From the NCBI RefSeq assembly GCF_900232105.1, contig NZ_LT934425.1, positions 3,390,001 through 3,422,000 on the forward strand: a DNA stretch of 32,000 bases, given 5' to 3'. Of this stretch, positions 1,905 through 32,000 are shown in pieces. The notes below the pieces were generated by a model that worked only from the letters and a program-made list of their open reading frames with translations, was not told where the DNA came from and did no database searches. Within the stretch, counting starts at the first letter, position 1, and every line of letters starts with the position of its first letter. Source of the DNA: Candidatus Kuenenia stuttgartensis. Its GTDB lineage: Bacteria; Planctomycetota; Brocadiia; Brocadiales; Brocadiaceae. A program made the position numbers and the translations under genes.

Positions 1905-1913
1905 ACTCCCCCC

Positions 1914-2921: not shown

Positions 2922-2934
2922 TGATAAATTGAAT

Positions 2935-3380: not shown

Positions 3381-3417
3381 ATTATTCCTGACTGGATTAA
3401 CTGGAAAAATTGGGTGG

Positions 3418-3468: not shown

Positions 3469-3530
3469 TTTAGTGAAAATAGTTCTTATAAAGAGAAATA
3501 TGTCAATAAGTGAAATTTTTAAAGTATCAT

Positions 3531-5072: not shown

Positions 5073-5137
5073 AAATGAGGTGCAACTAATTAAAATGACG
5101 CACGTAATTATATTCATAGCTGTAAAAGGTGGTATAT

Positions 5138-5461
5138 ATGTCCCAATTTCCAATTAAAGGTTGGCCTGCCGATGTGGTAAATAATCTCAATAATTTGATT
5201 TCGGATATTATCAGGAGACGAGAAATTAAAGAGTTTTATATTGGACGGACCAATGATTGCAATGCTACCCAATCGAGGCATGGTTGTGATGATATTTTTG
5301 CATTGTACGAAACTAATAGTTCCGAAAATGCTATTACAGTTGAGGATACCTTGATAAGAAAATTTTTTGGCCATCCGAAGTGTAATAATGATAACAGTCA
5401 TGGAGGCGGTGGAGTATCGAGCGAGTATATATATTATGTTTATCTGGCATCTTGGTACTAA
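5138..5461 (+). CDS. small hypothetical protein, tentatively GIY-YIG-like
   Basis: ATG 5138 follows AAAGGTGG. The sequence EFYIGRTND..QSRHG...ALYE...VEDTLIRKF...NNDN...YIYYVYLA carries YIG, R, H, E and N in the order of the GIY-YIG/Uri core. The first GIY strand is absent at the N-terminus. Confidence 0.45.
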   Translation: MSQFPIKGWPADVVNNLNNLISDIIRRREIKEFYIGRTNDCNATQSRHGCDDIFALYETNSSENAITVEDTLIRKFFGHPKCNNDNSHGGGGVSSEYIYYVYLASWY

Positions 5462-5574
5462 TGATTGTGAGTTGAATAGATTGAGTGAAGCAAAGCATCT
5501 CTAACAAAAACGTGCATTTGCCAACGGACAAGGAATGATAATGATGGGTTTGCTTCACTTAACTCATCCTTGAC

Positions 5575-5599
5575 CATTTGACATCGAAAATGTCAAATG
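5575..5599. promoter_or_regulatory. perfect 10-5-10 palindrome, candidate operator of the downstream TA operon
   Basis: CATTTGACAT-cgaaa-ATGTCAAATG ends 14 nt before ATG 5613. It overlaps TTGACC/TTGACA -35-like hexamers. Confidence 0.45.
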
Positions 5600-5612
5600 A
5601 AAGTATTTAGGA

Positions 5613-5897
5613 ATGTCTAAAATACAAAAGATACGGCAGAAGATTATTGATAAGGACTATTACATCTCATCCCATGCTGAAGATGAAATGTTAGACGATA
5701 AATTGGAACGTGCAGATATTAAGAATGCTATTCTTAAAGGGAAGATTGTAAAGAAATTTACAGAAGATGTAAGGGGGACAAGGTATCGAATAGAAGGAAC
5801 TGCCAGAGACGATAGAATAATTCATATCATTTGTAGGTATAGAGAAGATGGCAGCCTTATTATAATAACGGCATATGCTTTAACGGAGGAGATATGA
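5613..5897 (+). CDS. DUF4258-family putative toxin
   Basis: 94 aa. ...YYISSHAEDEMLDDKLERADIKNAIL.G.I...RYRIEG...RIIHIICRY...LIIITAYAL matches the DUF4258 pattern. A zinc-ribbon antitoxin-like gene follows after 3 nt. Confidence 0.75.
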   Translation: MSKIQKIRQKIIDKDYYISSHAEDEMLDDKLERADIKNAILKGKIVKKFTEDVRGTRYRIEGTARDDRIIHIICRYREDGSLIIITAYALTEEI

Positions 5898-5900
5898 GAT

Positions 5901-6122
5901 ATGATATGTGAATTTTGTAAAGGCAATACGGTAAAGAAAAAAGTAAAAAGGCAACACTGGCTTCATGGCAAGTTATATATTGTAGAAAATGTTGAGGCTG
6001 AGGTTTGTCCTGAGTGCGGTGAGCGTTATTTCCATGCTAAGGTTCTCGATGAAATAGACCACCTTCTTGAAAAGGAACATGACGTAAAAGAACGAATAAA
6101 TGTGGAAGTCGTTAGCCTATAA
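5901..6122 (+). CDS. YgiT-type zinc-finger protein (MqsA N-terminal-domain-like antitoxin)
   Basis: 73 aa with CEFC...CPECGE zinc ribbon, then YFHAKVLDEID. Tightly coupled to the DUF4258 gene. Confidence 0.75.
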   Translation: MICEFCKGNTVKKKVKRQHWLHGKLYIVENVEAEVCPECGERYFHAKVLDEIDHLLEKEHDVKERINVEVVSL

Positions 6123-6277
6123 ATTATGATTACTTTCTCGTAATTTGCTGATACATACAGTTTGTCTGACTTCCAGGATAAGACAAAAGAAGCAAGTTTT
6201 GAGGTCGAAACTAAGTCTAAGACTATGTATTACGCAGTGGATAAAAAAAAGACCAATAATAAATCGGAAGATAAACT

Positions 6278-6502
6278 GTGGAAATAGCCACAAGAATTGG
6301 TGTCGATGAGAAAGTGCGTTTTGGTAAACCTGTCATTACAGGGACACGAGTTCCTGTTGATCTTATCCTCGGTAAATTGGCAGGGGGGATGACTTACGAA
6401 TAAGTTATGGTTGAGTATGAGATTACACGCGAGGATATACTGGCGACTCTCGATTATGCGGCCAAAACATTGGCAAGTGAAGAAATCAGGGCAGTAAGTT
6501 AA
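6278..6502 (+). pseudogene. DUF433-like gene with an in-frame TAA
   Basis: GTG 6278 reads ...VRFGKPVITGTRVPVDLILGKLAGGMTYE, then TAA (6401-6403), then in the same frame VMVEYEITREDILATLDYAAKTLASEE...*. Together the two halves reproduce the DUF433 pattern (G.PvI.GTRipV..il..l..G.s.eeil.ey..lt.edI.aal.yA). Confidence 0.6.
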
Positions 6503-6612
6503 CATGCTGTAGTGTTAATTATTTGTTGGAGGATTTTTAGGTATGAGAAAAATAGTTACCTATGGAAAATATAGAAAAGTTAATATGATATAAAATATGG
6601 AAAGTATATATC

Positions 6613-6861
6613 ATGGACAAAATAGAAAAAGCTATTGAAACAACTGCTACTATTAATGCAAAAAGACAACTTGTATTAGATGAACCATTACCTGTTGCTG
6701 GTCCCCAAAAAGTTCGTGTTATTATATTATTGCAAGAAGAAACAGACATAGATGAAAAGGAATGGCTCAAGTTGGCAAGTGTGAATAATGCGTTTGATTT
6801 TTTAAAAGAACCTGAAGAGGATATTTATACTTCTTTTGATGGAAAACCATTTCATGACTAG
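6613..6861 (+). CDS. putative antitoxin of the adjacent MazF/PemK toxin
   Basis: 82 aa with an acidic C-terminus (...FDFLKEPEEDIYTSFDGKPF). Overlaps the toxin start by 8 nt. Confidence 0.6.
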   Translation: MDKIEKAIETTATINAKRQLVLDEPLPVAGPQKVRVIILLQEETDIDEKEWLKLASVNNAFDFLKEPEEDIYTSFDGKPFHD

Positions 6862-7198
6862 GGGTAAAGTAGTATTAGTTAATTTTCCTTTCGACGACCT
6901 TTCAACATCAAAAGTACGACCAGCAGTATGTTTGACGAATCCAATTGGTTCACACTCTCATGTTATACTTGCATTTATAAGTAGCAGAATTCCATCAGAT
7001 TTACTCGAAACAGATTTAATAATAGATACATCACACGAAGGCTTTAGTGGAACTGGTTTAAAGGTGGCTTCAACTTTGCGATTGCATCGTTTAATGACGG
7101 TAACGACTTCACTGTGCCAACGTGAATTGGGAGAGTTATCTCCCAAATTTCTGAGTGAAGTAAATAATAAACTAAAGAAGTTGTTTTGTATAAGATGA
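6854..7198 (+). CDS. mazF: MazF/PemK-family endoribonuclease toxin
   Basis: MTRGKVVLVNFPFDDLSTSKVRPAVCLT...HVILAFISSR... matches the PemK/MazF N-terminal signature (RG.iv.v.fp.....K.RPavvl). ATG 6854 preferred over the track start 6836. Confidence 0.8.
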   Translation: MTRGKVVLVNFPFDDLSTSKVRPAVCLTNPIGSHSHVILAFISSRIPSDLLETDLIIDTSHEGFSGTGLKVASTLRLHRLMTVTTSLCQRELGELSPKFLSEVNNKLKKLFCIR

Positions 7199-7238
7199 AG
7201 ATAACCATTATTCCTGAATTTGATTAATAAATACAATT

Positions 7239-8660
7239 ATGAAAATTACTTTTCTAGTACCACCACCCATTGATGGAAATATCCCGGAGCGGGTTGCCGG
7301 GTGTGCATACCTGCTCTATTATGTCCCGAATATCTTCCTCCTCAGCGCAGCGGCTGTTCTGGAAAAGGCAGGTTGCGAAGTTCGATATATTGAAACTACC
7401 ATTAAAAAATGGGACCGAAGACAATTCCGGACGTTCCTCAGGGAAGATTTGAGTGATATTTACAGCTTCTACTCAGTCAATCTCTCACAAAAGACCGATA
7501 TGCAGGCATTGCATGACATCCGTGAGATAAGGGGAGATATACCGGTTGTATTTTTTGGCCCTGCACCATCAGACAGACCGCTGGAATTTGTTGCAGACGA
7601 CGATACCTATGCCGTCAGGGGTGAACCGGAATACACGATGCTTGAACTGGTAAATGCATTAGAGGATAAATCAGCCATTAACGGTATCAAAAGCGTGTCT
7701 TTCAGAAGCAATAATGGAATTATCAATAATGATACCAGAGAGCCAATAGAAAATCTGGACGAACTTCCCTTTCCCGCAAGACATCTTTTGGAAGAGAAGG
7801 ACGTCTATTATAATCCCAAACTGGGGATGCGGCCGTTTACTGCCGTTTGTACTTCACGGGGTTGTTCCTACCGCTGCATTTACTGTGTTCCTTCTTCACT
7901 GAGCTTCTCAAGAGAACTTGAATACAAGCATTACTTTGACAAAAAACCGCCCGTAAGGAAGCGGTCGTCTGAGAATATCATTGGGGAATTTGCCTTATTG
8001 AAATCGCAGGGGTATAAGGCAGTGAATATGCAAGATGACCAATTCGTGTGGGGAGAAGAAAGGACTATTAAAATTTGCGAGGGCATTAAAGATTTAGACA
8101 TAGTATGGGGGTGTTCCGCAAGGTCGGATCATCTGACGGAACCCATAGTAAGGGCAATGGCTGCGGCAAATTGTAAATTTATTGATCTTGGCGTGGAATC
8201 ATTTAACCAGGAAATACTGGATTATGTGAAAAAGGATATTGACGTTAAAAAGAATGAAGAGGCGATACGACTGGTAAAAAAATATGGCATATCTGCAAAA
8301 ATAAATATTATGTTCGGGGCTTCTCCATTAGAAACAATGGAAACCATAAGAAAAAATACAGAAGAAGTGAAACGGTTAAAGGTAGATCAGGTAATGTATA
8401 ATATCGCAAATCCATTTCCCGGGACTGATTTTTATAAAACGGCGAAAGAAAACAATTTATTTGTTTATGGTGACTATAAACCGGTGAATGTGGCAAAGGA
8501 AGCCAACATAGCCTATCCCCATCTGAGCAAGACAGACCTTGAAAGAGCGGTGCGCAGTGCCAATTTTGCATTTTTCCTTTCCCCCCGTTTTGTTCTTAAA
8601 AATATCAGAAGAATCGGTTCGCTTGATGCTTTGAAAGCGATGTTTCGAAAGCTTTTCTAA
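7239..8660 (+). CDS. B12-binding-domain radical SAM protein
   Basis: 473 aa. The N-terminal about 150 aa look Rossmann-like and are followed by the CX3CX2C motif in TSRGCSYRCIYCVPS. Size and layout fit class B radical SAM enzymes. Confidence 0.85.
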   Translation: MKITFLVPPPIDGNIPERVAGCAYLLYYVPNIFLLSAAAVLEKAGCEVRYIETTIKKWDRRQFRTFLREDLSDIYSFYSVNLSQKTDMQALHDIREIRGDIPVVFFGPAPSDRPLEFVADDDTYAVRGEPEYTMLELVNALEDKSAINGIKSVSFRSNNGIINNDTREPIENLDELPFPARHLLEEKDVYYNPKLGMRPFTAVCTSRGCSYRCIYCVPSSLSFSRELEYKHYFDKKPPVRKRSSENIIGEFALLKSQGYKAVNMQDDQFVWGEERTIKICEGIKDLDIVWGCSARSDHLTEPIVRAMAAANCKFIDLGVESFNQEILDYVKKDIDVKKNEEAIRLVKKYGISAKINIMFGASPLETMETIRKNTEEVKRLKVDQVMYNIANPFPGTDFYKTAKENNLFVYGDYKPVNVAKEANIAYPHLSKTDLERAVRSANFAFFLSPRFVLKNIRRIGSLDALKAMFRKLF

Positions 8661-17778: not shown

Positions 17779-19095
17779 ATGCCTACAATTTTTGATGCTT
17801 TTTATATAATAGCACTTACCTTTGGTTTTCCCTATTTTCTCCTGAAAATTTTAATAAATAAGCGGTTCCGCACTGGTTTATTACAACGTTTTGGCTTTAT
17901 TCCGGCAAAAGCCGGCAAAAAACCTTGTATATGGATTCATTGCGCTTCGGTTGGAGAGGTTCTAGCCGCAAAGACTCTTATAAAGTCCATAGAAAAAGAG
18001 TTCGACGGGTTTGAAATAGCGTTGTCTGTTAATACAAATACGGGGTTTTCTGTTGCAAAAAAATATTTTGAAGGAAAGAGGATTTTTTATTTTCCGCTTG
18101 ATTTGAGCTGGGTGGTCAATAAAGCATTCAACAGAATAAAGCCGCAATTAATACTATTAATAGAACTGGAAATATGGCCGAATTTTATAACTGCCGCTGC
18201 AAAAAAACAAATTCCCGTTGTTTTGGTAAATGCAAGAATATCTGCTAAATCAGCGAAGTGGTACCGGTTGTTTTGCCGGATTTCGTGCATGTTTTCAAAA
18301 AGTTTGCTTAGAAAAGAAAACCTTTTTTGTGCGAGAACGCAGGCTGACGCCTTCCGCCTTAAAGAGCTGGGCATATCGGAGACTCAAATAAAGATCACCG
18401 GTAACATGAAATACGATAATATTGTCACCGATATTCCCGCAAACACAAGAGAACGTTTGCTGGAATTGTTTGAAATTGAAGCGGATGAAGAGGTGATCGT
18501 CTGTGGCAGCACTTTTGAAGGCGAAGAAATTATTCTTTTGAGGGTGTTTAAAAATCTTTGTGTAAAATTTGGTAAATTAAGGTTGATTATTGCGCCGCGT
18601 CATATTGAAAGAGTTCCCTATATTATAAAACAGATAGCTTCTCTGGGGTTTGACTATGCAAAAAAGTCATCGCTTGATAAGGGAAAGAAGGGTGCAGGAT
18701 ATAAGGGGAATCCAATTATTGTTGTTGATACGGTAGGGGAGTTGTCTACTATTTATAGCATTGCTTATTGTGTGTTTGTGGGAAGAAGTTTGATTCCCCA
18801 TGGCGGACAAAATATGGTAGAACCTGCTGGTTTGGCAAAACCTGTTATTGTAGGTCCTCATACGTTTAATTTTAAAGAGGAAGTTGATCTGTTAAAAAAG
18901 GCAGATGCGATTTTGATAGTGGATGATGAACATTCTTTGTCAAAAGCGATAACATATTTATTGGAGCATCCGGAAGAATCCAGGGAAATTGGCAGGAGGG
19001 CACAATTAGCGGTAACAAAACAAAAGGGCGTTGTAAATCGTAATATGAATATATTGAGAGAACATTTTTTGGAAGAGAGGACTGTATTGTTATGA
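17779..19095 (+). CDS. waaA: 3-deoxy-D-manno-octulosonic acid (Kdo) transferase
   Basis: 438 aa. N-terminal membrane anchor, [10 protein letters not shown] motif, GT30-like layout (ARISAKS..., GGSL-like ...[17 protein letters not shown]). Confidence 0.88.
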
Positions 19096-20258
19096 GGAGC
19101 GGAAGGTATTTATTTACTTCGGAATCTGTTTCAATGGGACACCCTGACAAAATAGCTGATCAGATATCCGATAGCGTATTAGATGCTATGCTGGAACAAG
19201 ACCCTATGAGCAGGGTTGCTTGTGAAACTTTGGTGACAACAGGGGTTGCTTTTGTTGCGGGTGAATTCACCACTAAGGCGAATGTAAATATACCCGATAT
19301 CGTAAGGAATACGATAAAAGAAATAGGCTATTGCGATGCGTCTATGGGATTTGACTATAATACCTGCGCGGTTCTTACAAGCATTGGCAAACAATCGCCG
19401 GATATTTCACAGGGGGTAAGCGGTGAAGGACTACATAAAGAAGAAGGCGCTGGAGATCAGGGAATGATGTTCGGCTACGCTTGCAATGATACGCCGGAAT
19501 TAATGCCCCTTCCAATTATGCTGGCACACAGGGCAATCATAAAGCATGCCGAATTGAGGCAAAACGGGACATTAAAGTATTTGCGTCCTGACGCTAAATC
19601 CCAGATTACGGTTGAATATGAAGGCCTTAAACCTATCAGAGTACATACCGTTGTTATTTCTACACAGCATGCCCCTGATGTTAAACATGACACTATTAAA
19701 ACGGACATGATCGAGAAGGTTGCCAAACAGGTGATACCGGCAAACTTGCTGGACAGCAAAACGATTTATCATATCAATCCTACAGGGCGTTTTGTAATCG
19801 GCGGTCCGCAGGGGGATTGCGGTTTGACCGGCAGGAAGATTATCGTTGATACGTATGGCGGATGGGGTCGTCATGGCGGAGGTGCTTTCTCCGGAAAAGA
19901 TCCAACAAAGGTTGACAGAAGCGCTTGTTATGCAGCCAGACATATCGCAAAAAATTTAGTAGCAGCAGGATTGGCAGACAGGTGTGAGGCGCAGGTGGCG
20001 TATGCTATTGGAGTGGCAAAACCATTGTCTGTTCACATTACTACAGAAGGTACCGGTAAACTCCCGGATGAAAGGCTTACTCAGATTTGTGAAAAAGTTT
20101 TTGATATGACGCCCAGCGGTATTATCAAGAGATTGAATCTGAGAAGGCCAATTTATAAGATTACCGCCAGACATGGACATTTTGGCCGTACCGAGGATTC
20201 ATTTACCTGGGAAAAGACTGATATGGTGGATACGTTACGTAAGGAAGCGGGTGTTTGA
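19092..20258 (+). CDS. metK: S-adenosylmethionine synthetase
   Basis: [57 protein letters not shown]. Start overlaps the waaA stop (ATGA). Confidence 0.97.
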
Positions 20259-20856: not shown

Positions 20857-20940
20857 TTGCTAAGTTTGTAACCTGCGCCCAGTAATTAAAACAGATTCTT
20901 GTGTGTTCAGAGTTGTAATCTGAACACATCTTGTAAATCC

Positions 20941-21345
20941 ATGATAACAAAAGATATTATACTCAACAGGGATTATGATGGATTACTGCACCTTACAGGT
21001 GCAGACATAATCTTTTTATTTGGTTCGATCCTTACAGACAGTTTTCATAAAGATAGCGATATTGATATTGGTGTTTATTTTGAAAACCGGCGTTATGATA
21101 AAACCGCTGTTTACGATACCGTCATTGATTTCTTTCAAACTGAAAAAGTAGATGTTGCTTTTTTAAATGAGGCGCCTCCATTGCTCTTATATCAGGTTAT
21201 AAAAAATGGCAAACCTATGGCCTGTGAGAACTATAAAATACTGATGGAATTCAGGCTTCGTAGTATCAAAAAGTATTGGGAGACTAAAAAATTCAGAAAG
21301 ATGAAAGAATATCTATTAAAGAATTATGTCGAAAGAATCAGATGA
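20941..21345 (+). CDS. mntA: MNT-type nucleotidyltransferase (MntA-like antitoxin)
   Basis: ...IIFLFGSILTDSFHKDSDIDIGVYFE... contains the GS...D.D minimal nucleotidyltransferase motif. ATG 20941 follows the hairpin TGTGTTCAG-n9-CTGAACACA (20901-20928); the track start 20899 would begin inside it. Confidence 0.75.
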   Translation: MITKDIILNRDYDGLLHLTGADIIFLFGSILTDSFHKDSDIDIGVYFENRRYDKTAVYDTVIDFFQTEKVDVAFLNEAPPLLLYQVIKNGKPMACENYKILMEFRLRSIKKYWETKKFRKMKEYLLKNYVERIR

Positions 21346-23027: not shown

Positions 23028-23056
23028 TTGACTGTTTACCTGATTTCAGATAGAAT
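23028..23056 (+). promoter_or_regulatory. sigma70-like promoter for the riboswitch-thrC transcript
   Basis: TTGACT (23028-23033), 17 nt spacer, TAGAAT (23051-23056), about 15 nt upstream of riboswitch P1. Confidence 0.5.
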
Positions 23057-23071
23057 CCTAACTTATACAGT

Positions 23072-23193
23072 ATCTTATCCGGAGTGGCAGAGGGACTGGC
23101 CCTGTGAAGCCACAGCAACCGGCCTGTTCAGATTACGTCTGAACATGGTGCAGGTGCTAATTCCTGTCTCAAGTTTTTGGGAAAAGATAAGAT
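23072..23193 (+). promoter_or_regulatory. SAM-I (S-box) riboswitch aptamer
   Basis: P1 CTTATC (23074-79) pairs with GATAAG (23186-91). Conserved cores are in the canonical order: GGAGTGGCAGAGGGACTGGCCCTGTGAAGCCACAGCAACC, then a P3 hairpin, then GGTGCTAATTCCTG, then AAGATAAG. Confidence 0.85.
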
Positions 23194-23205
23194 AGGAGAA
23201 CAAAT

Positions 23206-23250
23206 AAAAGCCTCATCCTATCTTATTTTTAGGAAAGAGGCTTTTTTTAT
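23206..23250 (+). terminator. riboswitch expression-platform terminator (with competing antiterminator)
   Basis: AAAAGCCTCaTCCT...AGGAaaGAGGCTTTTTTT. TAAGATAGGA (23188-97, sharing the P1 3' strand) can pair with TCCTATCTTA (23216-25), the classic SAM-off switch geometry. Confidence 0.7.
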
Positions 23251-23273
23251 TGCTGAAATATACGGAGAAAGAA

Positions 23274-24518
23274 ATGGGTTATGTAAACGGATTAAAATGC
23301 AGGGAATGCGGAAAAGAATATCCAAAAGAACCATTACATGTTTGCAGTTTTTGTTTCGGGCCTTTAGAGGTAGATTATGATTACGAGGGCATTAAAAAGG
23401 TTATAAACAGAGAAGTTATTCAATCGCGCAGCAATACAATGTGGCGTTACAAAGAACTGCTCCCGATAGACGGCGAACCGACTGTTGGAAGCCAGGTGGG
23501 ATTTACGCCGCTGGTAAAGGCGAATAATCTGGCAAAAATTCTGGGCGTAGAAGAACTCTATGTAAAAAATGATTCGGTAAATTATCCTACGTTTTCCTTT
23601 AAGGACAGAGTGGTTTCAACTGCATTGTCAAAGGCAAAAGAATTTGGCTACAAGATTGTTGGATGCGCAACTACCGGCAATTTGGGAAACTCAGTAGCTG
23701 CACAGGCGGCTCAGGCATGCCTGGAAAGTTATATTATTATGCCAGCAGACCTGGAACAGGGCAAGATTATTGGCACGCTGATATATAATCCTAATGTGAT
23801 AAAAGTAACTGGAAATTATGATCAGGTAAACAGGTTATGTTCTGAAATTGCCGATAAATATGGTTGGGCGATTGTAAACGTAAATATACGACCATATTAC
23901 GGTGAGGGATCAAAGACATTTGGTTATGAAATCATGGAACAACTGGGCTGGAAAGTGCCAAAGCATATTGTCGTGCCCATGGCGGGCGGATCATTAATTA
24001 CAAAGATTGGAAAGGCAATAAAAGAATTTGTACAACTAGGTCTTATTGATGGCGCAGATACAAAATTACATGGTGCTCAAGCCAGTGGAAGTTCTCCGAT
24101 TACTACGGCGGTCAAAGGCAAGACGGATGTGATAAGGCCGGTAAAGCCCAATACCATAGCGCAGTCGATAGCAATTGGAAACCCCGCGGATGGTTTTTAT
24201 TCGGTGAAAAGCATTAATGTTTCCGGTGGATGGGCAGAAGATGTAACGGACGATGAGCTTGTTGAGGGTATTAAATTGCTTGCCAGAACAGAAGGTATTT
24301 TTACGGAAACGGCTGGCGGCGTTACCGTGGCGGTAACGAAAAAACTGATCGAACAAGGAAAGATACCGCGTGATGAATCCATCGTCATTTCCATTACCGG
24401 GAATGGTTTAAAAACACAGGAAGCCGTGATTAACAAATTATATGAGCCAAAAATTATTAACCCTTCCCTTGCCGAATTTGACAAAGTTATGGAAGAAAAA
24501 ATGGCGGCCGTGCGTTAA
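23274..24518 (+). CDS. thrC: threonine synthase family PLP enzyme with N-terminal zinc ribbon
   Basis: MGYVNGLKCRECGKEY...CSFCFGPLEVDYDY zinc ribbon. PLP lysine motif PTFSFKDR. GNLGNSVAAQAA. ATG 23274 has GGAGAAAGAA upstream; the track start 23250 lies inside the terminator. Confidence 0.9.
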   Translation: MGYVNGLKCRECGKEYPKEPLHVCSFCFGPLEVDYDYEGIKKVINREVIQSRSNTMWRYKELLPIDGEPTVGSQVGFTPLVKANNLAKILGVEELYVKNDSVNYPTFSFKDRVVSTALSKAKEFGYKIVGCATTGNLGNSVAAQAAQACLESYIIMPADLEQGKIIGTLIYNPNVIKVTGNYDQVNRLCSEIADKYGWAIVNVNIRPYYGEGSKTFGYEIMEQLGWKVPKHIVVPMAGGSLITKIGKAIKEFVQLGLIDGADTKLHGAQASGSSPITTAVKGKTDVIRPVKPNTIAQSIAIGNPADGFYSVKSINVSGGWAEDVTDDELVEGIKLLARTEGIFTETAGGVTVAVTKKLIEQGKIPRDESIVISITGNGLKTQEAVINKLYEPKIINPSLAEFDKVMEEKMAAVR

Positions 24519-24652
24519 CAGATAATTAATTTGGGAAAACAGAGGTCGGATTCCCAATATCTTTATAATCTTATGTAAATATTTTTTTTGAGTTGTATTC
24601 GCGGAAAACACGTATTCTATACGTATAATATATCTTTCTCTTCCTTAGAATA

Positions 24653-24731
24653 GATTGCTTTGCGGTATGCACATCCGGCAATGATTAGTATCGTATTGTT
24701 TTGCTTCAGTGCAAAACTCCGCAAAGCAATC
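24653..24731. repeat. 13-bp perfect inverted repeat with a nested 7-bp hairpin
   Basis: GATTGCTTTGCGG (24653-65) pairs with CCGCAAAGCAATC (24719-31). Inside is GTTTTGC-ttcagt-GCAAAAC. Confidence 0.75.
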
Positions 24732-24815
24732 CTGAACCTCATAACTCCTGTTTTGTATAGGGATACTTAAGAAGCTCACCATTTGTGATTTATAGACAAT
24801 GTCGTACCAGTTCAA

Positions 24816-24840
24816 CACGGACAAACAAGGTTTGTCCGTG
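24816..24840. repeat. 11-bp perfect stem hairpin, related to the one at 3418
   Basis: CACGGACAAAC-aag-GTTTGTCCGTG. It differs from 3418/3458 (CACAGACAAAC / GTTTGTCTGTG) by a paired A>G / T>C change. Confidence 0.75.
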
Positions 24841-24841
24841 C

Positions 24842-24978
24842 GTAATTATTCAGCTTAAACACGGATTGGCAAAATCACCTGATGAGTGGCTGTATTCCAG
24901 CTTTCATCGCCAGGTAAAGCAAGGCGCTATAATAGCGATTGGGGAGCAGGTACTGAAATGAAATTAAATTTAACGTAA
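24842..24978 (+). pseudogene. 3' remnant of a RayT-type (REP-associated, IS200-like Y1) transposase, copy A
   Basis: ...LKHGLAKSPDEWLYSSFHRQVKQGA, then after a 1-nt frame slip YNSDWGAGTEMKLNLT*. This matches the C-terminal pattern NPVKHGLv..p.dWpySSFHRyV..G.Y..dWG of this family. No N-terminal part is present. A truncated half-REP (TTGTTGGGTTTCGCTTTCAG, about 25008-25027) follows. Confidence 0.5.
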
Positions 24979-25144
24979 AAGTAGAACACGAATAATTTAA
25001 TTTGATTTGTTGGGTTTCGCTTTCAGACTGGGCCAAATGGCCATTTTCCAGAGATTGCTATACAATAAATTAATACCCTTGTGTAATATTGTGGCAAAAT
25101 TGGAATCATCGTTAGTCTCTGCTTATCCCGGAAAGGAGCTAAGA

Positions 25145-25330
25145 ATGCAAGTTGTTTTGAATGCGCCTTAAAGTTTCGAAAACCTGTCAATACAAGAAAA
25201 AGAGCATTTGATTCAAGAATTACAACAGGAATTGATGACTAGATCGGAGATGATTGAGGGCTTCAAAAAACCTGTAGAGGATTTCGAGGATTGGGAAAAA
25301 TTAGGATTTGAGGACGAAGAATGGAACTGA
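25145..25330 (+). pseudogene. decayed antitoxin gene with an in-frame TAA at codon 9
   Basis: ATG 25145, TAA at 25169-71, and the same frame continues ...NLSIQEKEHLIQELQQELMTRSEMIEGFKKPVEDFEDWEKLGFEDEEWN*. It overlaps the mazF-like start by 10 nt. Confidence 0.45.
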
Positions 25331-25660
25331 AAAAAGGCGATATTGTTCTCGTCCAAGCCCCCGCTAACCCTTCAGGCACTGAAATTCAAAAAACACGGCC
25401 AGCCGTCGTTGTTTTCCCCCAAAAGAAATGGCTATACACGGCAATCGAGCCATTGTTATTCCAATTACCGGCAATGTAAGTAAAATCTATCCTTTTGAGT
25501 TCCTGATTAAATCAAAATATTTGTTCAACGAGTCTAAGGGTTGCTGCGACCAAATTCAAACCGTAAGTACAAAGAGAATCATAAAAAATACGGAGACATT
25601 TCAAATTCAGAAATGGAAGCACTTGATAAGGCTTTGAAAAATATCTTACGATTAAAATAG
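25321..25660 (+). pseudogene. MazF/PemK-family toxin pseudogene (at least 2 frameshifts)
   Basis: Frame 1: MELKKGDIVLVQAPANPSGTEIQKTRPAVVV. Frame 2 (track ORF 25428..): ...AIVIPITGNVSKIYPFEFLI...CDQIQTVSTKRIIK. Frame 3: ...SNSEMEALDKALKNILRLK*. Joined they form a complete MazF pattern. The first shift sits in TTTTCCCCCAAAAG runs. Confidence 0.6.
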
Positions 25661-25702
25661 AAAGGCACTTTTTTATTTTCCACTGTTTTTTATCCATTAA
25701 AT

Positions 25703-25819
25703 AAAGCAAGGCGCTTATGATAGCAATTAGGGAGCAGGTACTGAGATTAAATTTGACGTAAACGTAGGGCATGAATAATTTAATTTGTTGGGTCTCGCCT
25801 TACTCAACCCAACCTACAC
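25703..25819 (+). repeat. RayT 3'-end remnant copy B plus REP hairpin
   Basis: KQGAYDSN*GAGTEIKFDVNVGHE* aligns with copy A. Then GTTGGGT (25787-93)-n13-ACCCAAC (25807-13) followed by CTAC, i.e. GTAG directly 5' of the hairpin on the minus strand, the REP architecture. Confidence 0.55.
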
Positions 25820-25849
25820 AACGATAATTAAATCAAAAAGAGATGAAAC

Positions 25850-26146
25850 ATGCTTTTGTTTGATTGGGATCCAATCAAGGCGGGAAGGAATATAAATATT
25901 CACGGCGTATCTTTTGATGAGGCAAGCACTGCTTTCAAAGATATCCTGTCATTAACGATTTATGATCCTTTGCACTCTGACGAAGAGGACCGGTTCATTT
26001 TAATTGGAAATTCCTGTAAAAATCGTCTTTTGGTAATTGTTCATACGGAAAGAGAAGATAAAATCAGAATAATCAGCGCAAGAAAAACAACAAAAAACGA
26101 AAGGAAACAATATGAAGAGAAAGCAAAAAGATCCAGACATGCTTGA
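25850..26146 (+). CDS. brnT: BrnT-family (DUF497) toxin
   Basis: MLLFDWDPIKAGRNINIHGVSFDEASTAF...DEEDRFILIG...LLVIVHTEREDKIRIISARKTTKNERKQYEE is the BrnT/DUF497 signature. Confidence 0.85.
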   Translation: MLLFDWDPIKAGRNINIHGVSFDEASTAFKDILSLTIYDPLHSDEEDRFILIGNSCKNRLLVIVHTEREDKIRIISARKTTKNERKQYEEKAKRSRHA

Positions 26147-26357
26147 AGAGTACGATTTCAGCAAAGGGATTCAGGGAAAATATGCAAAAAAATACAATGA
26201 AGGAACAAATGTCGTGGTTATAGATCCGGATGTTGCAAAGTTTTTCCCTGACCACGACTCTGTAAATGAGGCATTGAGATCATTAACCGAAATTATTAAA
26301 AGGCAAAAAAGGACGTCCAACAAGTCCCCCCATCGGACGGTTGATAGCCGACGCTGA
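26112..26357 (+). CDS. brnA: BrnA-like antitoxin
   Basis: 81 aa overlapping the brnT 3' end. ...MLEEYDFSKGIQGKYAKKY...VVIDPDVAKFFPDHDSVNEALRSL... is the pattern seen in DUF497-partner antitoxins. Confidence 0.7.
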   Translation: MKRKQKDPDMLEEYDFSKGIQGKYAKKYNEGTNVVVIDPDVAKFFPDHDSVNEALRSLTEIIKRQKRTSNKSPHRTVDSRR

Positions 26358-26377
26358 GTTTAATCGTTGAGTGACCA

Positions 26378-26476
26378 ATTCCAGCTTTCATTGCTACTTA
26401 AAACTAAATGTGACGTAAAGGTAGGACATGAATATTTTAATTTGTTGGGTTTCGCTTTACTTATCCCAACCTACAC
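26378..26476 (+). repeat. RayT 3'-end remnant copy C (internally deleted) plus REP hairpin
   Basis: TTCCAGCTTTCAT (SSFH) aligns with copy A. The ...AAATGTGACGTAAAGGTAGGACATGAATATTTTAATTT segment aligns with copies A and B. GTTGGGT (26444-50)-n13-TCCCAAC (26464-70), then CTAC. Confidence 0.55.
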
Positions 26477-26598
26477 AACTTGAACAGATAACATCCGGCT
26501 CGACCCGGCCGGGAATAGCATCTGTGGTTTTTGCAATGGCGGTTGCCCCTGCGTGCCCTCCATTTCGTTTGCTTCTTAAATAACGACAAATATTACTG

Positions 26599-27663
26599 AT
26601 GATAATGGATGATAAGATTATTAATGAAGCCATTCAATTCTTGATAGATGGCGGAGAACAAGAGGCAGCAGATATTCTCAAAATGTGCTCTGTGGAAAAT
26701 TGTGAAGTTGTAGATTCCTGGATGAATGGGAGTAATCAATTGGACGGTTTATCTATAGAACTGCGAGGCCCTCGCACGGCATATGAGATTCTTTCAAGAC
26801 ATGACCATCCATTGGGAGAAGAAATATTATATGCCTTTTCGGCTATCCTTCCTGGCAGCACTTATATTAAGAACTTACGAATACGTGCGGTCACTTTGCC
26901 AGAGGAAACTCGTATGCAGATAAACAATACTATACCTATGCCTGAGTTGAAGGAATTAATTCAAAAGATAGAGTCGCAAAAAGGGTTGATGATTGCAGTT
27001 GCCACCGGAGGTCCTAAGATTAAAGATGTTAATGCCCAGTATAACCACAGACGATTTGAAATTCTGCAAAAATTGCAGGATATGGGGATTGACGCCCCAA
27101 ATCCTTATCATGATCTTTGGGGTTGGTACGGAAAGTGGAGCGACGGTAGTCTCCCCAGTTGGCAAGCAAGAAGAAATTATATTGGCACTCTTTATCAGCC
27201 ATTGTTGGATGCCCTAACGATGAAAAGCAAAACAACTTCGACAGTTCAGCCGCAAGAACCTACTGGTTGGGCGCGGGTTGATCGTAACGTCGATAAGATA
27301 AATAATGCATTAGCCTATGCAGAAAATGAGGAAGATTTTCAAACGGTTGGCTTTTTATGTAGAGAAGCTATTATTTCATTGGCTCAAGCAGTTTACGACT
27401 CAACGAAACATAGCAGTGTTGACAGCATATCGCCTAGTAATACTGATGCAGCGAGAATGCTGGAAAGCTACATAGCCGCAGAGTTAGCTGGAAACTCCAA
27501 TGAGACACACCGGAAGTTTGCCAAAACAACTGTTCAGCTTGCAGTAGGCCTTCAGCATAAGCGCACAGCAAGCTTCCGAGAAGCCGCTCTCTGCGCGGAG
27601 GCGACAAGAGCAATCATCAATACCATTGCGATTATGTCAGGGCAAAGGGATCCTGAGAAATAA
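26599..27663 (+). CDS. uncharacterized 354-aa protein (possible Abi/HEPN-like; unassigned)
   Basis: Long ORF with no competing frame. Central motif HDLWGWYGKWSDGSLPSWQARRNYIGTLYQPLLDAL. Helical C-terminal domain ...CREAIISLAQAVYD...THRKFAKTTVQLAVGLQHKRTASFREAALCAEATRAIIN. No family confirmed. Confidence 0.7.
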   Translation: MIMDDKIINEAIQFLIDGGEQEAADILKMCSVENCEVVDSWMNGSNQLDGLSIELRGPRTAYEILSRHDHPLGEEILYAFSAILPGSTYIKNLRIRAVTLPEETRMQINNTIPMPELKELIQKIESQKGLMIAVATGGPKIKDVNAQYNHRRFEILQKLQDMGIDAPNPYHDLWGWYGKWSDGSLPSWQARRNYIGTLYQPLLDALTMKSKTTSTVQPQEPTGWARVDRNVDKINNALAYAENEEDFQTVGFLCREAIISLAQAVYDSTKHSSVDSISPSNTDAARMLESYIAAELAGNSNETHRKFAKTTVQLAVGLQHKRTASFREAALCAEATRAIINTIAIMSGQRDPEK

Positions 27664-27864
27664 GAAAAGCTAACGAATCATTCAATCCGACCATGAATAG
27701 CGCTCGTTTGAGTTTGGAGAAAATAGGGACAGCGACTGTTAAACAAATGGTCCAAATTCCCGGTTCCCAATTTCTAAGAATAACAGTGGGATTAATTACT
27801 GTCATAAATTATAAATTTGCTTAACGCTATCCAATTATTGATATAATATTTAAAGGAACATGAA

Positions 27865-28137
27865 ATGAAATTCGAATGGGATCCGAAGAAAGCACGCTCA
27901 AATTTGCGAAAGCACAAGGTCTCATTCGAGGAAGCTTCAATGGCGTTGAGTGACCCTATGGCTGCAACTGGCGCTGACCCGGATCATTCTATTGGCGAAT
28001 GCAGATACATTACTTTCGGCGTTTCGGAACGAGGTCGGTTATTAGTGGTCGCACACACCGAGCGAGGCGAGACTATACGAATTATAAGCGCTCGCATAGC
28101 GGGCAAAGGAGAGCGAAAGATTTATGAAGAAGGTTAA
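27865..28137 (+). CDS. brnT: BrnT-family (DUF497) toxin, second copy
   Basis: MKFEWDPKKARSNLRKHKVSFEEA...ECRYITFG...LLVVAHTERGETIRIISARIAGKGERKIYEE. Confidence 0.85.
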   Translation: MKFEWDPKKARSNLRKHKVSFEEASMALSDPMAATGADPDHSIGECRYITFGVSERGRLLVVAHTERGETIRIISARIAGKGERKIYEEG

Positions 28138-28390
28138 ACAGACAGAAAAAGATGAATTGCGTGCGGAGTATAAACGTTCAGACTTCCCAGTCCCTTTGGT
28201 GCGTGGCAAGTATGTAAGTCGCCTGCGTAAGTCATCAAATGTTATTATTCTTAAACCGGAAGTTGCTGAGGCTTTTCCAAACGAAGAAGCCGTTAATACT
28301 GCACTTCTGTCATTGATAAAGCTTGCGCAAAAAACTACACGCTTAACAAAACGCTCAACCGGACGCGTAAAAAAGCTGCATGCCGGTTAG
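28124..28390 (+). CDS. brnA: BrnA-like antitoxin, second copy
   Basis: Overlaps brnT by 14 nt. ...LRAEYKRSDFPVPLVRGKYVSRL...IILKPEVAEAFPNEEAVNTALLSL is parallel to 26112..26357. Confidence 0.7.
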   Translation: MKKVKQTEKDELRAEYKRSDFPVPLVRGKYVSRLRKSSNVIILKPEVAEAFPNEEAVNTALLSLIKLAQKTTRLTKRSTGRVKKLHAG

Positions 28391-28442
28391 CTATGCGTTA
28401 GCCCGCTAAACAACCCTGATCAGAAACAAAGGGATGTTGTAA

Positions 28443-29508
28443 ATGAAACTTACTGATACCGAAAAACGCGAAATACTGAAACTTATTGAAGCGGATAAGC
28501 CGCTACCCGATAAGTACCGCTTTATGCTCTTTGACGACAAGCGTGAGGTGGAACTGGTATGGAACGGCAAAACCAGTGAAGTGACTAATCTCGTTTTGCC
28601 TTTTCAGGTAATCGAACAGGTGGATGAACCTCGTAATTCGAAACCGATAATGGCCGTCAATAAACGCAAATCCGGAAAGGTTATTGGTGATCATTCCCGT
28701 ACCGCCGCAGTTGACAAATATCCTGTTCAACGTCCGCTTTTCGACACAAGAGGCCGTCAGAAATCCGGATGGACGAACAAACTCATCTGGGGCGACAACA
28801 AGCTCATTCTTTCATCCCTGAAAAACGGCCCCCTCCGCGCGGAAATTGAAAAGGAGGGCGGCATTAAGCTCATCTGCATCGACCCGCCATTTGATGTGGG
28901 CGCGGATTTCTCGATGGACATAGAGATCGGCGACGACACCTTCACCAAGAAACCCAATGTGCTGGAAGAACTGGCATACCGCGATACCTGGGGCAAGGGC
29001 GCTGACAGCTTCATCGCCATGATCTACGAACGCCTTGTGCTGATGCGGGATTTGCTGGTGGAAAATGGGAGTATTTATGTGCATTGTGATTGGCGGGTGA
29101 ATTCCTTCATGAGGCTTGTCATGGAGGAAGTTTTCGGTACAAGTGTTTATCGAAATGAAATTCGTTGGAAAAGACAGCCTCCTCGTGGAGCAAAAGCCAT
29201 ATCGCGCCAGTATGCTCGTTCATCAGACAGTATGCTGTATTACACAAAAAGTGATTCATATACATGGAACGCACAATTTAAAGAATACGATCAAAAATAC
29301 ATTCTGTCGAAATTTAACAAGCAAGATAAGGATGGTCGTTGGTATAGAATAGATAACATTGGTGACTACTCTGAAAAGTCGATAGCGGAGTTCCGTAAAA
29401 AAGGACGAATATATGACTATCCATCTGGTAAGGTTGGATTAATTCGTTATCTTGATGAAGCAAAAGGCGAAGCAATTACAGATATATGGTTGGATATTAA
29501 TGAAGTTA
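28443..29508 (+). pseudogene. beta-class N6/N4 DNA methyltransferase (Mod-like), 5' part, cut by IS insertion
   Basis: LPFQVIEQVDEPR..., WTNKLIWGDNKLILSSL, and motif IV ICIDPPFDVGADF. The frame runs ...ITDIWLDINEV and then enters IS sequence, stopping at 29547-29549. Confidence 0.85.
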
Positions 29509-30634
29509 TAGTCAAACAAATCAGATTTTCGAAATTTGCTCGCCAATAATTTGAAAATTTTCAGTTAAAAGAGTAGACAATTCATCTGTATACTCGTTAA
29601 TATTTTTGAAAAAACTTAAACATTTGTTTTTAAACTTCTCATAAGTATCATAATACTTGTTATACAATATTTTTTTGCGAAAGAATTTCCATAATCTTTC
29701 AATGAGATTTAAATTGGGCGAATAGGAAGGGAGAAATTTGATCTTTATTCTCGAATTTGCAAGGTATTCTTTGACCAACTTAGACCTGTAATATTTAGCA
29801 TTATCAGAGATTATGTAAATAGTACCGGCTTGAGCATACCTTGACTCTATTTCATGGAAAAGCTTTATTGTTGATTGAGCATTGATGCTTTCATCTTCCC
29901 GGATTGTTACTTCAAAGGTTTCTATGTCAATAGCCCCGTTTAAATTTATTCTTTTCCTGCCGGTATTAGAGGGTATTTCCTTCTTTTTGCCTTTCTCTAT
30001 CCAGCAATATGCAGACGTAGAATTGTGCTGTGGATGAACTCCATCCATAAAAAGTATCTTATCTCCAGGGGCTTTCTCTTCTTTGAGTTGTTTGTAGTTT
30101 TCGATAAATTCTTTTTGTTTTTCAGGGTTTGCTTTGCCTGGAACTATTGTAGTTTTCTTGTAAGTAAAGCCTAATCTATCGAGGGTATGTACCATTCCTT
30201 CGGGTGTATAGATTTTATTGAATGTCTGTTTTACATATTCAACAATTTCTTTTGCCGCACTATAGTTGTTTTTCCTGATATGATCTTTTAATTGTTCTTC
30301 TTGTTCGCAGGTGAGTTTTGGCACACAGCCAATATAATTGTCAGATAAAAGCCCGTCAAAACCTTTATCTTTGTATAGTTTTTCGTAATTCCTGATTGTT
30401 TGATCGTCTAACAAGAGCGCCTCTGCTACTTCTTCATAACTCCATCCTGAATCAAGAAGAAGTATAGCTTTGATTTGGTCGGCATGACGTCTATGAGGCT
30501 CTTTCTTATGTGCTTTTTTAAATTCTATTCGGGTTTTTTCACTGAGAAATGGATTCATGCAGAATTTAATACTCTAGAAACAATTCAAATGCAAGAAAAA
30601 AACAGGTTCTTCTAAAAATAAATGCTTTTTACTA
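29509..30634 (-). mobile_element. IS630-family insertion sequence (about 1.13 kb) with TA target duplication
   Basis: TA at 29507-08 and at 30635-36 flank the element. Imperfect terminal IRs: TAGTCAAACAAATCAGATTTTCGAA versus the reverse complement of the other end, TAGTAAAAAGCATTTATTTTTAGAA. Deleting the element plus one TA restores the methyltransferase frame (..[21 protein letters not shown]..). Ends are ambiguous by the TA. Confidence 0.85.
29521..30558 (-). CDS. IS630-family DDE transposase
   Basis: 345 aa, intact. N-terminal HTH region (...GWSYEEVAEALLLDDQTIRNY...). DDE-type motifs FMDGVHPQHN, IISDNAKYYRS, LPSYSPNLNLIERLWKFFRKK. Confidence 0.9.
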   Translation of the reverse strand: MNPFLSEKTRIEFKKAHKKEPHRRHADQIKAILLLDSGWSYEEVAEALLLDDQTIRNYEKLYKDKGFDGLLSDNYIGCVPKLTCEQEEQLKDHIRKNNYSAAKEIVEYVKQTFNKIYTPEGMVHTLDRLGFTYKKTTIVPGKANPEKQKEFIENYKQLKEEKAPGDKILFMDGVHPQHNSTSAYCWIEKGKKKEIPSNTGRKRINLNGAIDIETFEVTIREDESINAQSTIKLFHEIESRYAQAGTIYIISDNAKYYRSKLVKEYLANSRIKIKFLPSYSPNLNLIERLWKFFRKKILYNKYYDTYEKFKNKCLSFFKNINEYTDELSTLLTENFQIIGEQISKI

Positions 30635-31049
30635 TAATTCTCAAGCCCTTGAAGATACGAAGTACGCGACCCAAAAGCCCGAAGCCCTGCTCGAACGTAT
30701 TATAAAGGCATCCTCCAACGAAAACGACATCGTTGCGGATTTTTTCTGCGGTTCCGGCACCACGCCGGCTGTGGCCGAAAAACTGGGGCGTAAGTGGATC
30801 GGCGCAGACCTAGGCAAGTTTGCTATCCATACCACCCGCAAGCGCATGATTGGCGTTCAGCGTCAGCTTAAAGAAGATGGCAAGGACTTCCGCGCCTTTG
30901 AGATACTCAACCTCGGTAAGTACGAGCGGGCGCATTACATCGGCGTTTCCTCATTTATTGAACCGCGAATAGACGCTAATGGACGCAAATCAAAACAAAA
31001 AGACATTAGCGTTAATTCGGTACGCCAAGAAGCGTATATATATCAGTTG
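30635..31049 (+). pseudogene. DNA methyltransferase, 3' continuation (motifs X/I), running into a group II intron
   Basis: ..[58 protein letters not shown]... carries the FxGxG SAM-binding motif after the TRD, which is beta-class order. It continues ...[16 protein letters not shown]... The present frame stops at 31071-73, inside the presumed intron. Confidence 0.8.
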
Positions 31050-32000
31050 GTGCAAATCCAACCCGCCAATTGACCGTTCGGGCGGTAGTGAAAGAGGCAG
31101 AAAACCTCACGGGAGAACGTAAACAGCGATGAATACGTTCGAGTCCCCTGTAGCGAGCAGTCAGACCGTAGCGCAAGCGAACACGCAGGCTTCGTTACGC
31201 TAAAAATACGATAGATGAGCCTCCCGGATTGGGCGAAATCTGTAATCGCATAGGTAGAAAGAGACAAACGGTAGAACTATGCGGTGTCGTCGGAGTTGAG
31301 AGTGACGGTATGACTGTAAAAGGTATATATATGAACTTGGGAGGTCTCATTGTTCAGGTTGATGACCGTAACGCATACTATAAGGGAAGCCGAAGGGTAT
31401 AGCGGGATAATGAGAAGTCGGAGATGCCCATAGTAGTGAAGATGGTGAAGACAACATAACTTCACCGTAGCGAAGGGGCATTACTTCAGTTAACGTTTAC
31501 AAAGAAAGGAGGAAATTGTATTGGGAGACCTACAAGCAATACCGAAATCGCAAATGAGCGATGATGAAAGAGTCCGAGACTTTCAGCGTAAACTATATCG
31601 AAAAGCCAAACAGGAAGAAGGATTTCGCTTTTATGTATTGTATGACAAGGTGAGAATGTTGCATTTTTTGAGAGAGGCGTACAAGCGCTGCAAAGCCAAT
31701 GGAGGAAGCGCCGGGGCAGACGGGATTACATTTGAAGATGTGGAGTCATACGGGGTGGAGAAGTTTCTTGGAGAGATAATAGAGGAACTTGAAAACAAAA
31801 CCTACGAACCACAGCCGGTACTGAGAGTGTACATACCTAAAACCAACGGTAAGACACGACCATTGGGAATCCCTGTGATAAAAGACAGGGTAGTGCAGAT
31901 GAGTGTAAAGCTTGTAATAGAGCCGATATTCGAAGCAGACTTTGAAGATAGCTCCTACGGATTCCGACCGGGACGTTCAGCGGGCGATGCTGTGAGGAAA
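31050..32000 (+). mobile_element. group II intron, 5' part (domains I-IV with RT ORF), truncated by the window end
   Basis: An RT/maturase ORF starts at 31521, preceded by about 470 nt of ORF-free, stem-rich sequence. GTGCA at 31050 is the best fit to the GUGYG 5' consensus. The 5' boundary is not proven. Confidence 0.75.
31521..32000 (+). CDS. group II intron reverse transcriptase/maturase (N-terminal 160 codons, partial)
   Basis: Absent from the supplied ORF track because there is no stop in the window. AAAGGAGG lies 8 nt before TTG 31521; an in-frame ATG is at 31554. ...FQRKLYRKAKQEEGFRFYVLYDKV...AYKRCKANGGSAGADGITFEDVE...RVYIPKTNGKTRPLGIPVIKDRVVQMSVKLVIEPIFEADFEDSSYGFRPGRSAGDAV gives RT domains 0-2 of group II IEPs. 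Confidence 0.9.
   Translation, partial: MGDLQAIPKSQMSDDERVRDFQRKLYRKAKQEEGFRFYVLYDKVRMLHFLREAYKRCKANGGSAGADGITFEDVESYGVEKFLGEIIEELENKTYEPQPVLRVYIPKTNGKTRPLGIPVIKDRVVQMSVKLVIEPIFEADFEDSSYGFRPGRSAGDAVRK

Follow-up and report, generated by a model that had tools for sequence, protein, structure and literature searches.

Why should a riboswitch that senses S-adenosylmethionine (SAM) stand in front of a gene whose product, like all the named sequences among the close relatives listed, is labelled "threonine synthase"? The gene in question lies in Candidatus Kuenenia stuttgartensis, in a stretch of 32,000 nucleotides (positions 3,390,001 to 3,422,000 of contig NZ_LT934425.1) that we call the window; coordinates below are those of the window unless marked as genome positions. 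The original prediction, made from the letters of the window, placed this threonine synthase (ThrC) homologue in methionine/homocysteine synthesis. That assignment is supported by a true ThrC encoded elsewhere in the genome, by the clade to which the window protein belongs, by the missing alternatives and by linkage to a sulfur carrier. Very probably, the gene is a monocistronic metM whose transcription is governed by a SAM-OFF riboswitch, a separate ThrC makes threonine, and O-phospho-L-homoserine (OPHS) is the branch point between the two pathways.

The riboswitch itself is clear. Scanned over its full length with Rfam, the window yields a sole match above the gathering score, the SAM-I (S-box) model RF00162, at 23072–23193 on the forward strand. 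It scores 88.0 bits, far over the gathering threshold of 44.4 bits (E 7.4e-20), and covers the complete model, positions 1–108, with helices P1 to P4. A search with RF00162 of the whole genome, 4.4 Mb in a single contig of 41% G+C, finds this one copy. The 5′ strand of P1 (23072–23079) pairs with 23186–23193, and the expression platform is laid out as follows. An intrinsic terminator at 23206–23248 consists of a hairpin, 23206–23245 (−16.9 kcal/mol), and a U7 tract. An antiterminator helix at 23183–23230 (−16.6 kcal/mol) pairs 23183–23199, that is, the P1 3′ strand and the next bases, with 23213–23230, the 5′ half of the terminator. Without the P1 5′ strand, the platform folds preferentially as the antiterminator. 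P1, the terminator and an antiterminator sharing the P1 3′ strand had been read from the sequence in the original prediction, and folding recovers all three, which are kept in 19 relatives. In the alignment of these relatives, 97% of the cells in P1 are paired. In the terminator, the outer stem is 95% paired and shows one compensatory pair, and the U tract does not vary. The antiterminator core (23186–23197 with 23216–23227) is kept, with one compensatory change from G-C to A-U at 23195/23218. The competing P1, antiterminator and terminator architecture is present, and it is predicted to respond to SAM.

Upstream, the predicted sigma-70-type promoter TTGACT-17 nt-TAGAAT, also named before, lies at 23028–23056 on the forward strand and matches the consensus at 10 of 12 positions. 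Promoter-like sites in the region are no more numerous than in shuffled sequences. The position and sequence of this one are kept in 16–17 of the 19 Brocadiales leaders, with a −35 element TTGAC(T/A), a −10 box and a constant distance to the aptamer. A putative ribosome-binding site, GGAG, is read at 23264–23267 of the same strand, and a GGAG-type motif precedes the start codon in most relatives.

The controlled gene runs on the forward strand from its ATG at 23274 to 24518 and encodes a pyridoxal phosphate (PLP) enzyme of 414 residues with the ThrC fold, matching PALP (233 bits) and the ThrC family TIGR00260; we predict it to be a homocysteine synthase. Its Lys110 (codon 23601–23603), in an SFKDR motif, aligns with Lys61 of Thermus thermophilus ThrC, is the predicted Schiff-base lysine, and is invariant in the MetM-like and ThrC clades alike. 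Among solved structures, the best matches are the ThrCs of Aquifex, Bacillus subtilis and T. thermophilus, at about 176–192 bits, and the match to Arabidopsis 1E5X scores 102 bits. An N-terminal Cys4 zinc ribbon (Cys9, Cys12, Cys24 and Cys27; codons within 23298–23354), which has a NinF-type Pfam match of 33 bits, had been singled out earlier. The ribbon is invariant in 44 homologues but is not diagnostic, because the true ThrC paralogue of this genome also has a Cys4-like N-terminus (CxxxC...CxxC).

The company that the gene keeps in other bacteria bears on its function. A locus search with a 13-sequence alignment gave 80 named loci whose proteins are 56–86% identical to the window protein, drawn from Planctomycetota, Verrucomicrobiota, Thermodesulfobacteriota, Nitrospirota, Nitrospinota, Cyanobacteria, Chloroflexota, Acidobacteriota and others. 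An orthologue of a ubiquitin-like carrier (E 1e-18 to 1e-47) is encoded on the same strand and ends within 1.5 kb downstream at 67 of 79 loci, which span at least ten phyla. The other recurrent operon partners are ThiF-type E1 enzymes (22 loci), JAMM peptidases (nine loci) and CysM/K-like PALP enzymes. The carrier, MetO, is fused to a NIL domain in seven loci, and to a ThiF-type E1 in a metagenome-assembled genome of Actinomycetota (e.g. L030:7275-7787 and L065:7235-8299). SAM-I riboswitches were surveyed by running the Rfam model over the 80 whole host genomes, with subsequent mapping and a motif check. Forty-five of these genomes have SAM-I, 41 of them in exactly one copy. The riboswitch is directly upstream of the gene at 40 of the 80 loci and further upstream in the operon at two more; none was found at the Nitrospirota, Nitrospinota and Cyanobacteria members. 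Two matches that seemed to lie near the gene (L065 and L097) are in fact on other contigs. In a Micromonosporaceae homologue with 50% identity to the window protein, SAM-I lies 10 nt ahead of the start codon. A search started from this homologue gave only proteins of Micromonosporaceae and of metagenomes, with no named Streptomyces MetM among them. In many phyla, then, the single SAM-I of the genome is dedicated to the metM operon. The original prediction had pointed to MetM and MetO under SAM riboswitch control in actinomycetes. This holds for Streptomyces albulus, where a SAM riboswitch precedes metM and metO adjoins it (PMC12172450), but the arrangement is not limited to that group: the predicted riboswitch–metM–metO unit is found in at least ten phyla, beyond the actinomycetes.

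Within the Brocadiales, the anammox order to which its relatives assign this genome, 25 of 26 genomes carry metM, including all 22 of high quality. The carrier gene comes immediately after metM in 21 of 21 Brocadiales outside the genus of the window, and within that genus in 0 of 4. It had been remarked that no ThiS-like open reading frame (ORF) comes after the gene. This is right for the window, but a search of the genome for ThiS-like proteins ending in Gly-Gly, as had been proposed, finds a carrier 18 kb downstream, beside ahcY, whose orthologues adjoin metM in most other lineages. Of the two ThiS/MoaD-family genes detected in the genome, one encodes a true ThiS. The other encodes a MoaD/SAMP-like protein of 94 residues with the C-terminus ...AIAGG-CQL, the metO orthologue (genome 3432703–3432987). 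This gene follows ahcY at a distance of 338 nt; metM is about 18 kb upstream of it, and the end of the window about 10.7 kb. The gene has its own ribosome-binding site, and a 15-bp hairpin separates it from ahcY; no SAM or S-adenosylhomocysteine riboswitch was found ahead of ahcY or metO. The protein matches PF02597 at 56.7 bits, the archaeal MoaD model at 49.9 bits (cutoff 49.5) and SAMP1 at 55 (cutoff 60). Since three residues follow the Gly-Gly, processing by a JAMM peptidase is implied.

Partners for such a carrier are encoded at scattered sites in the genome. There are two E1 enzymes of the MoeB/UbaA type, with no rhodanese-type MoeZ match above cutoff. A cluster on the reverse strand (genome about 4115970–4118130) holds DsrE-like, CysM-like (TIGR01138, 373 bits), JAMM (83 bits) and TusA-like genes. 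The JAMM protein of this cluster is a desampylase-like peptidase, and the cysM-JAMM-tusA cluster, machinery for carrier-dependent synthesis of cysteine, includes no carrier gene, so that the MetO-like carrier may serve it too. A NIL-domain protein and a Met-rich leader ORF, both reported for other MetM operons, are absent at this locus. With its PF02597 fold, its Gly-Gly and its E1 and JAMM partners, the 94-residue protein has the features of a MetO/CysO-type carrier, and a C-terminal thiocarboxylate is predicted.

How did metO come to lie apart from metM? In a family-level relative (G089), which is syntenic with the window, the gene order is secA-kdtA-metK-(AhcY-like)-DUF1015-metM-metO. The island of about 18 kb that separates the two genes here (24519–32000 of the window and 1–8600 of the adjoining stretch, L018) is absent at this position in family-level relatives. 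Because of this synteny and of the intervening 18 kb, we take the split to be a recent, genus-specific rearrangement via mobile and defence DNA. The carrier of this genome is 82% identical to the metM-adjacent carrier of G089, and its function has probably been kept. It could nevertheless be held that the MetM-like enzyme works without a carrier in this genus, using sulfide or another small sulfur donor, and that the MoaD-like protein serves CysM or molybdopterin synthesis. Only two ThiS/MoaD genes were detected, yet CysM–Mec and probably molybdenum cofactor (Moco) synthesis also need a carrier; the carrier passes the archaeal MoaD model and sits just under the SAMP1 cutoff; and none of the four genomes of the genus has metO linked to metM or under riboswitch control. 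We regard this explanation as improbable, though it is the best surviving of the alternatives. The identity to the carrier of G089 speaks against it, as does the nearly universal adjacency of metM and metO elsewhere, and the mobile/defence island accounts for the split without any change of function.

If the riboswitch-controlled gene is metM, threonine must come from another enzyme. A second thrC, for which the original prediction had called to search, is indeed present, so that the window gene is not the sole thrC of the genome. It lies on the reverse strand at genome positions of about 1052467–1053804, encodes a plant-type ThrC and scores 224 bits against TIGR00260. Its product is 29% identical to the window protein and aligns nearly without gaps to residues 46–475 of Arabidopsis chloroplast TS1 (581 bits). 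We conclude that a bona fide ThrC is encoded here, because this paralogue at about 1.05 Mb matches the Arabidopsis enzyme far better than the window protein does. Plant threonine synthase is activated by SAM. By analogy, both arms of the OPHS branch might be subject to SAM in this organism, the threonine arm through activation of the plant-type ThrC.

The two paralogues separate cleanly in a tree rooted on CysM and including 26 MetM-like sequences. The MetM-like clade, with anammox, cyanobacterial and actinomycete members, is monophyletic (Shimodaira–Hasegawa-like approximate likelihood ratio test, SH-aLRT, 95) on a stem of 0.81. The window protein falls outside the cluster of characterised threonine synthases, as the phylogeny asked for by the original prediction would have it if the assignment to methionine synthesis were right. 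A further ThrC-family gene above cutoff occurs in 25 of the 26 host genomes. Every one of these second ThrCs lies outside the MetM-like clade, and the paralogue of this genome belongs to a plant-type subclade. The cyanobacterial members of the clade have an adjacent metO, in genomes with two or three ThrC-family genes.

The active sites differ as well. In a comparison of 105 MetM-like sequences with 24 ThrCs, in T. thermophilus numbering, 12 positions are conserved differently between the groups, within the SFKDRGM, ASTGNTSA, NSxNPxRxEGQK and GNxGN motifs. Among them, Gly64-Met65 is replaced by Val-Val, Thr88 by Leu137, Ser155 by Asn204, Asn157 by Arg206, Arg160 by Tyr209, Gly187 by Ala237 and Ala194 by Lys244. 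A looser criterion adds Gln164 to Ser213, Asn188 to Gly/Ser238 and Asn191 to Leu241. Of these, Leu137, Asn204, Arg206, Tyr209, Ser213, Ala237 and Leu241 are each at least 90% conserved in the 105 clade members, while Gly/Ser at 238 is variable. The ThrC-type residues are present in the three solved bacterial ThrCs, and the window protein is without them. Several of the substituted residues of T. thermophilus ThrC presumably bind the substrate phosphate and so direct the addition of water. A remodelled phosphate pocket would fit a γ-replacement by sulfur. In annotation, the clade-specific residues could serve to tell MetM from ThrC.

Membership of the MetM family is strongly supported, if indirectly, and the window protein is best described as a predicted MetM-type enzyme. 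Several points weigh against this reading and are gathered here. The window protein scores 285 bits against the ThrC equivalog TIGR00260, whose cutoff is 167; evidently the model does not tell MetM and ThrC apart. The metO of this genus does not adjoin metM and is outside the control of the riboswitch, so that no argument from co-regulation can be made for this genome. The assignment to the MetM family is drawn from synteny, from the riboswitch, from the clade and from identity figures taken at second hand, the tree was a quick search, and the phosphate-binding roles of the substituted ThrC residues are presumptive. The enzymatic role of metM in this organism is deduced from homology, context and pathway logic. 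The main published evidence on the contrary side concerns a cyanobacterial member of the clade: the Microcystis "ThrC", which adjoins a metO-like gene and is 51.6% identical to S. albulus MetM, showed threonine deaminase and weak synthase activity when no thiocarboxylated carrier was supplied, and gave no sign of MetM function in vivo (PMC12172450).

Such in vitro activities, together with the score above the TIGR00260 cutoff, the retained PLP lysine and the many ThrC motifs that are kept, would suit an additional true threonine synthase, or an enzyme that is both synthase and deaminase, through which SAM tunes the flux of OPHS. We think this highly unlikely. To shut off threonine synthesis when SAM is high contradicts pathway logic. 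A plant-type ThrC is available here, and a second ThrC accompanies the MetM-like enzyme in nearly every host genome. Linkage to a sulfur carrier, an E1 and JAMM is conserved, the positions common to the three solved ThrCs are remodelled, and the genome would then be without any homocysteine route.

This last point follows from a census of the pathway. The original prediction had also named a complete conventional methionine pathway as a thing to look for, and no MetA, MetX or MetB/C/Y/Z route is found in the genome. PF01053, the family of MetB/C/Y/Z, gives only partial matches of at most 38 bits in this genome, and MetX and the DUF39/HcyBio homocysteine route were not found in it. MetA was not found in any of the 26 Brocadiales genomes, and 20 of the 26, this one included, have no full-length PF01053 enzyme. 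As a separate observation, the other six do have one; in five Brocadiales genomes, one of them of the window's own genus, the enzyme is of about 383 residues and scores about 545 bits. The supply of OPHS is accounted for as follows. The sole thrB-like match in the genome is IspE, and there is no canonical thrB. However, hom, a HomK-type homoserine phosphotransferase gene and gpmA stand in a row at genome positions of about 278867–282142, and the product of the gene directly after hom matches TIGR02535/HomK at 553 bits (cutoff 446). The TIGR02535 family (HomK) has been shown experimentally to replace the homoserine kinase ThrB (GapMind 2026, PMC13759103). With hom and HomK present, OPHS is therefore made here, and the riboswitch-controlled ThrC paralogue is the only candidate for converting it into a methionine precursor. 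Another γ-replacement on OPHS, such as plant-like formation of cystathionine from cysteine followed by a β-lyase, would agree with the plant-like branch point, the plant-type ThrC and the PF01053 enzymes of the six genomes, but it is the least probable explanation of all, as no PF01053 enzyme is here to cleave cystathionine and the conserved partner is a sulfur carrier, with no lyase.

The last step to methionine also appears unusual. MetH (PF02574) and MetE (PF01717) were not detected in this genome, and MetE was undetected across the Brocadiales. A candidate is a protein of 350 residues on the reverse strand (genome 2575132–2576181), with a weak match to the archaeal core methionine synthase NF002119 (E 1.3e-8) and an H225-x-C227...C321 pattern; it occurs in all 22 high-quality Brocadiales genomes. 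It may be a methionine synthase of the Mes type, an enzyme class tied to the Wood–Ljungdahl pathway (PMC7857596).

We propose that the MetM-type enzyme and its riboswitch work as follows. Transcription would start some 10 nt ahead of the aptamer. At high SAM, the aptamer would bind its ligand, P1 would be locked, and the hairpin with its U7 tract would form and terminate transcription ahead of metM. At low SAM, the 5′ half of the terminator would be taken up by pairing with the P1 3′ strand, and RNA polymerase would continue into metM. Hom and the HomK-type phosphotransferase would supply OPHS to MetM, which would exchange its γ-phosphate for the sulfur of the C-terminal thiocarboxylate of MetO. 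MetO would be the 94-residue MoaD-like protein encoded beside ahcY; a JAMM peptidase would trim its GG-CQL tail, a MoeB/UbaA-type E1 would adenylate and thiolate the trimmed protein, and a JAMM (Mec-like) hydrolase would free homocysteine from the MetO adduct. The Mes-like zinc enzyme would then methylate homocysteine to methionine, and MetK would convert this to SAM, closing the feedback loop. Threonine would be made by the plant-type ThrC, with the riboswitch governing the methionine arm of the OPHS branch.

In anammox genomes, this proposal meets a reported gap. Those of Kuenenia, Brocadia and Jettenia are said, in papers on anammox reactors, to lack a complete methionine pathway, and cross-feeding of methionine from heterotrophs has been proposed (PMC11460484, PMC9909701); another paper writes "Met(?)" (PMC5460018). 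The MetM/MetO route probably closes the gap behind these cross-feeding claims. Together, metM, HomK, the carrier machinery and the Mes-like candidate make up a testable complete pathway, which argues against obligate auxotrophy. It is tempting to go further and to propose that the anammox methionine route is non-canonical throughout and plant-like in its logic, that SAM controls both arms of the OPHS branch, and that one GG-CQL carrier, released from the riboswitch in this genus, serves MetM, CysM and perhaps Moco synthesis, in which case the auxotrophy and cross-feeding inferred for anammox consortia would be an artefact of annotation; this wider scheme is tentative, and we hold it to be possible and no better than that.

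The remaining genes of the locus are as follows. On the forward strand at 19092–20258 lies metK, for SAM synthetase (TIGR01034, 583 bits); its distance from the riboswitch region, put at about 3 kb in the original prediction, is 2.8 kb. Between metK and the DUF1015 gene, an MntA-family nucleotidyltransferase antitoxin gene is inserted at 20899–21345 (NF047752, 77 bits). Downstream, the part of the separating island that lies in the window, 24519–32000, begins at the end of metM and runs on past the window. It includes a BrnT toxin gene (25850–26146), a DNA methylase gene (28443–29549) and, on the reverse strand, an IS630 transposase gene (29521–30558). In the stretch beyond the window, a BPTD_3080-family restriction enzyme is split in two ORFs (L018, 5123–7830), and the 18 kb also holds a GNAT gene and ahcY.

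The closest known system is that of Streptomyces albulus, in which, as reported by Hasebe et al. 2024 (Appl Environ Microbiol 90:e01247-24; cited in PMC13759103 and PMC12172450), MetM (UniProt A0A059WBP2) and MetO (A0A059W7F4) are said to act with Mec and MoeZ in an OPHS-dependent synthesis of homocysteine. As in Kuenenia, there is a ThrC-like PLP enzyme, an upstream SAM riboswitch, a ubiquitin-like carrier ending in Gly-Gly, an E1 and a JAMM protein, and OPHS is implied as the substrate by the pathway context. Unlike in S. albulus, metO here adjoins ahcY at a distance of 18 kb from metM, is not controlled by the riboswitch and has a GG-CQL tail, and MetM is apparently the sole route rather than an alternative to MetY/MetB. 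The adjacency of metM and metO, absent here, is typical of the MetM family but not strictly defining. GapMind 2026 counts the Streptomyces proteins MetM, MetO, Mec and MoeZ among those with experimental support (PMC13759103).

The bona fide ThrCs (T. thermophilus 1UIM, B. subtilis 6CGQ, Aquifex 2ZSJ and Arabidopsis 1E5X) share with the window protein the fold, the PLP lysine and probably OPHS as substrate. Unlike them, the window protein is placed in a separate clade, and its gene is linked to genes for sulfur carriers. In Mycobacterium tuberculosis, CysO, CysM and Mec carry out a carrier-dependent synthesis of cysteine. The likeness extends to the PLP enzyme, the O-phospho amino acid, the thiocarboxylate of the carrier and release by JAMM. 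The substrate there is O-phosphoserine, however, the enzyme has the CysK/M fold and the product is cysteine, whereas here the fold is that of ThrC and the riboswitch points to methionine. A thiocarboxylate-dependent homocysteine synthesis with HcyS, HcyD, HcyF and MetY was reportedly described in Wolinella succinogenes (Krishnamoorthy and Begley 2011). It resembles the proposed route in that a tail past the Gly-Gly of the pro-carrier is cut by a JAMM protein, an E1 activates the carrier and homocysteine is the product; it differs in using O-acetylhomoserine and MetY (PF01053), both absent here.

In plants, cystathionine γ-synthase competes with a SAM-activated threonine synthase for OPHS. The Kuenenia branch resembles this in that OPHS is common to threonine and methionine, its partition is governed by SAM and the ThrC is of the plant type, but the place of cystathionine γ-synthase would be taken by MetM with its carrier, and SAM control here is by riboswitch. 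The MetM/MetO system has been known since 2024; what the present locus adds is the anammox lineage, the absence of an alternative route, and the genus-specific uncoupling of carrier and riboswitch, which makes the genus Kuenenia a natural case of an enzyme still under SAM control whose carrier has escaped it.

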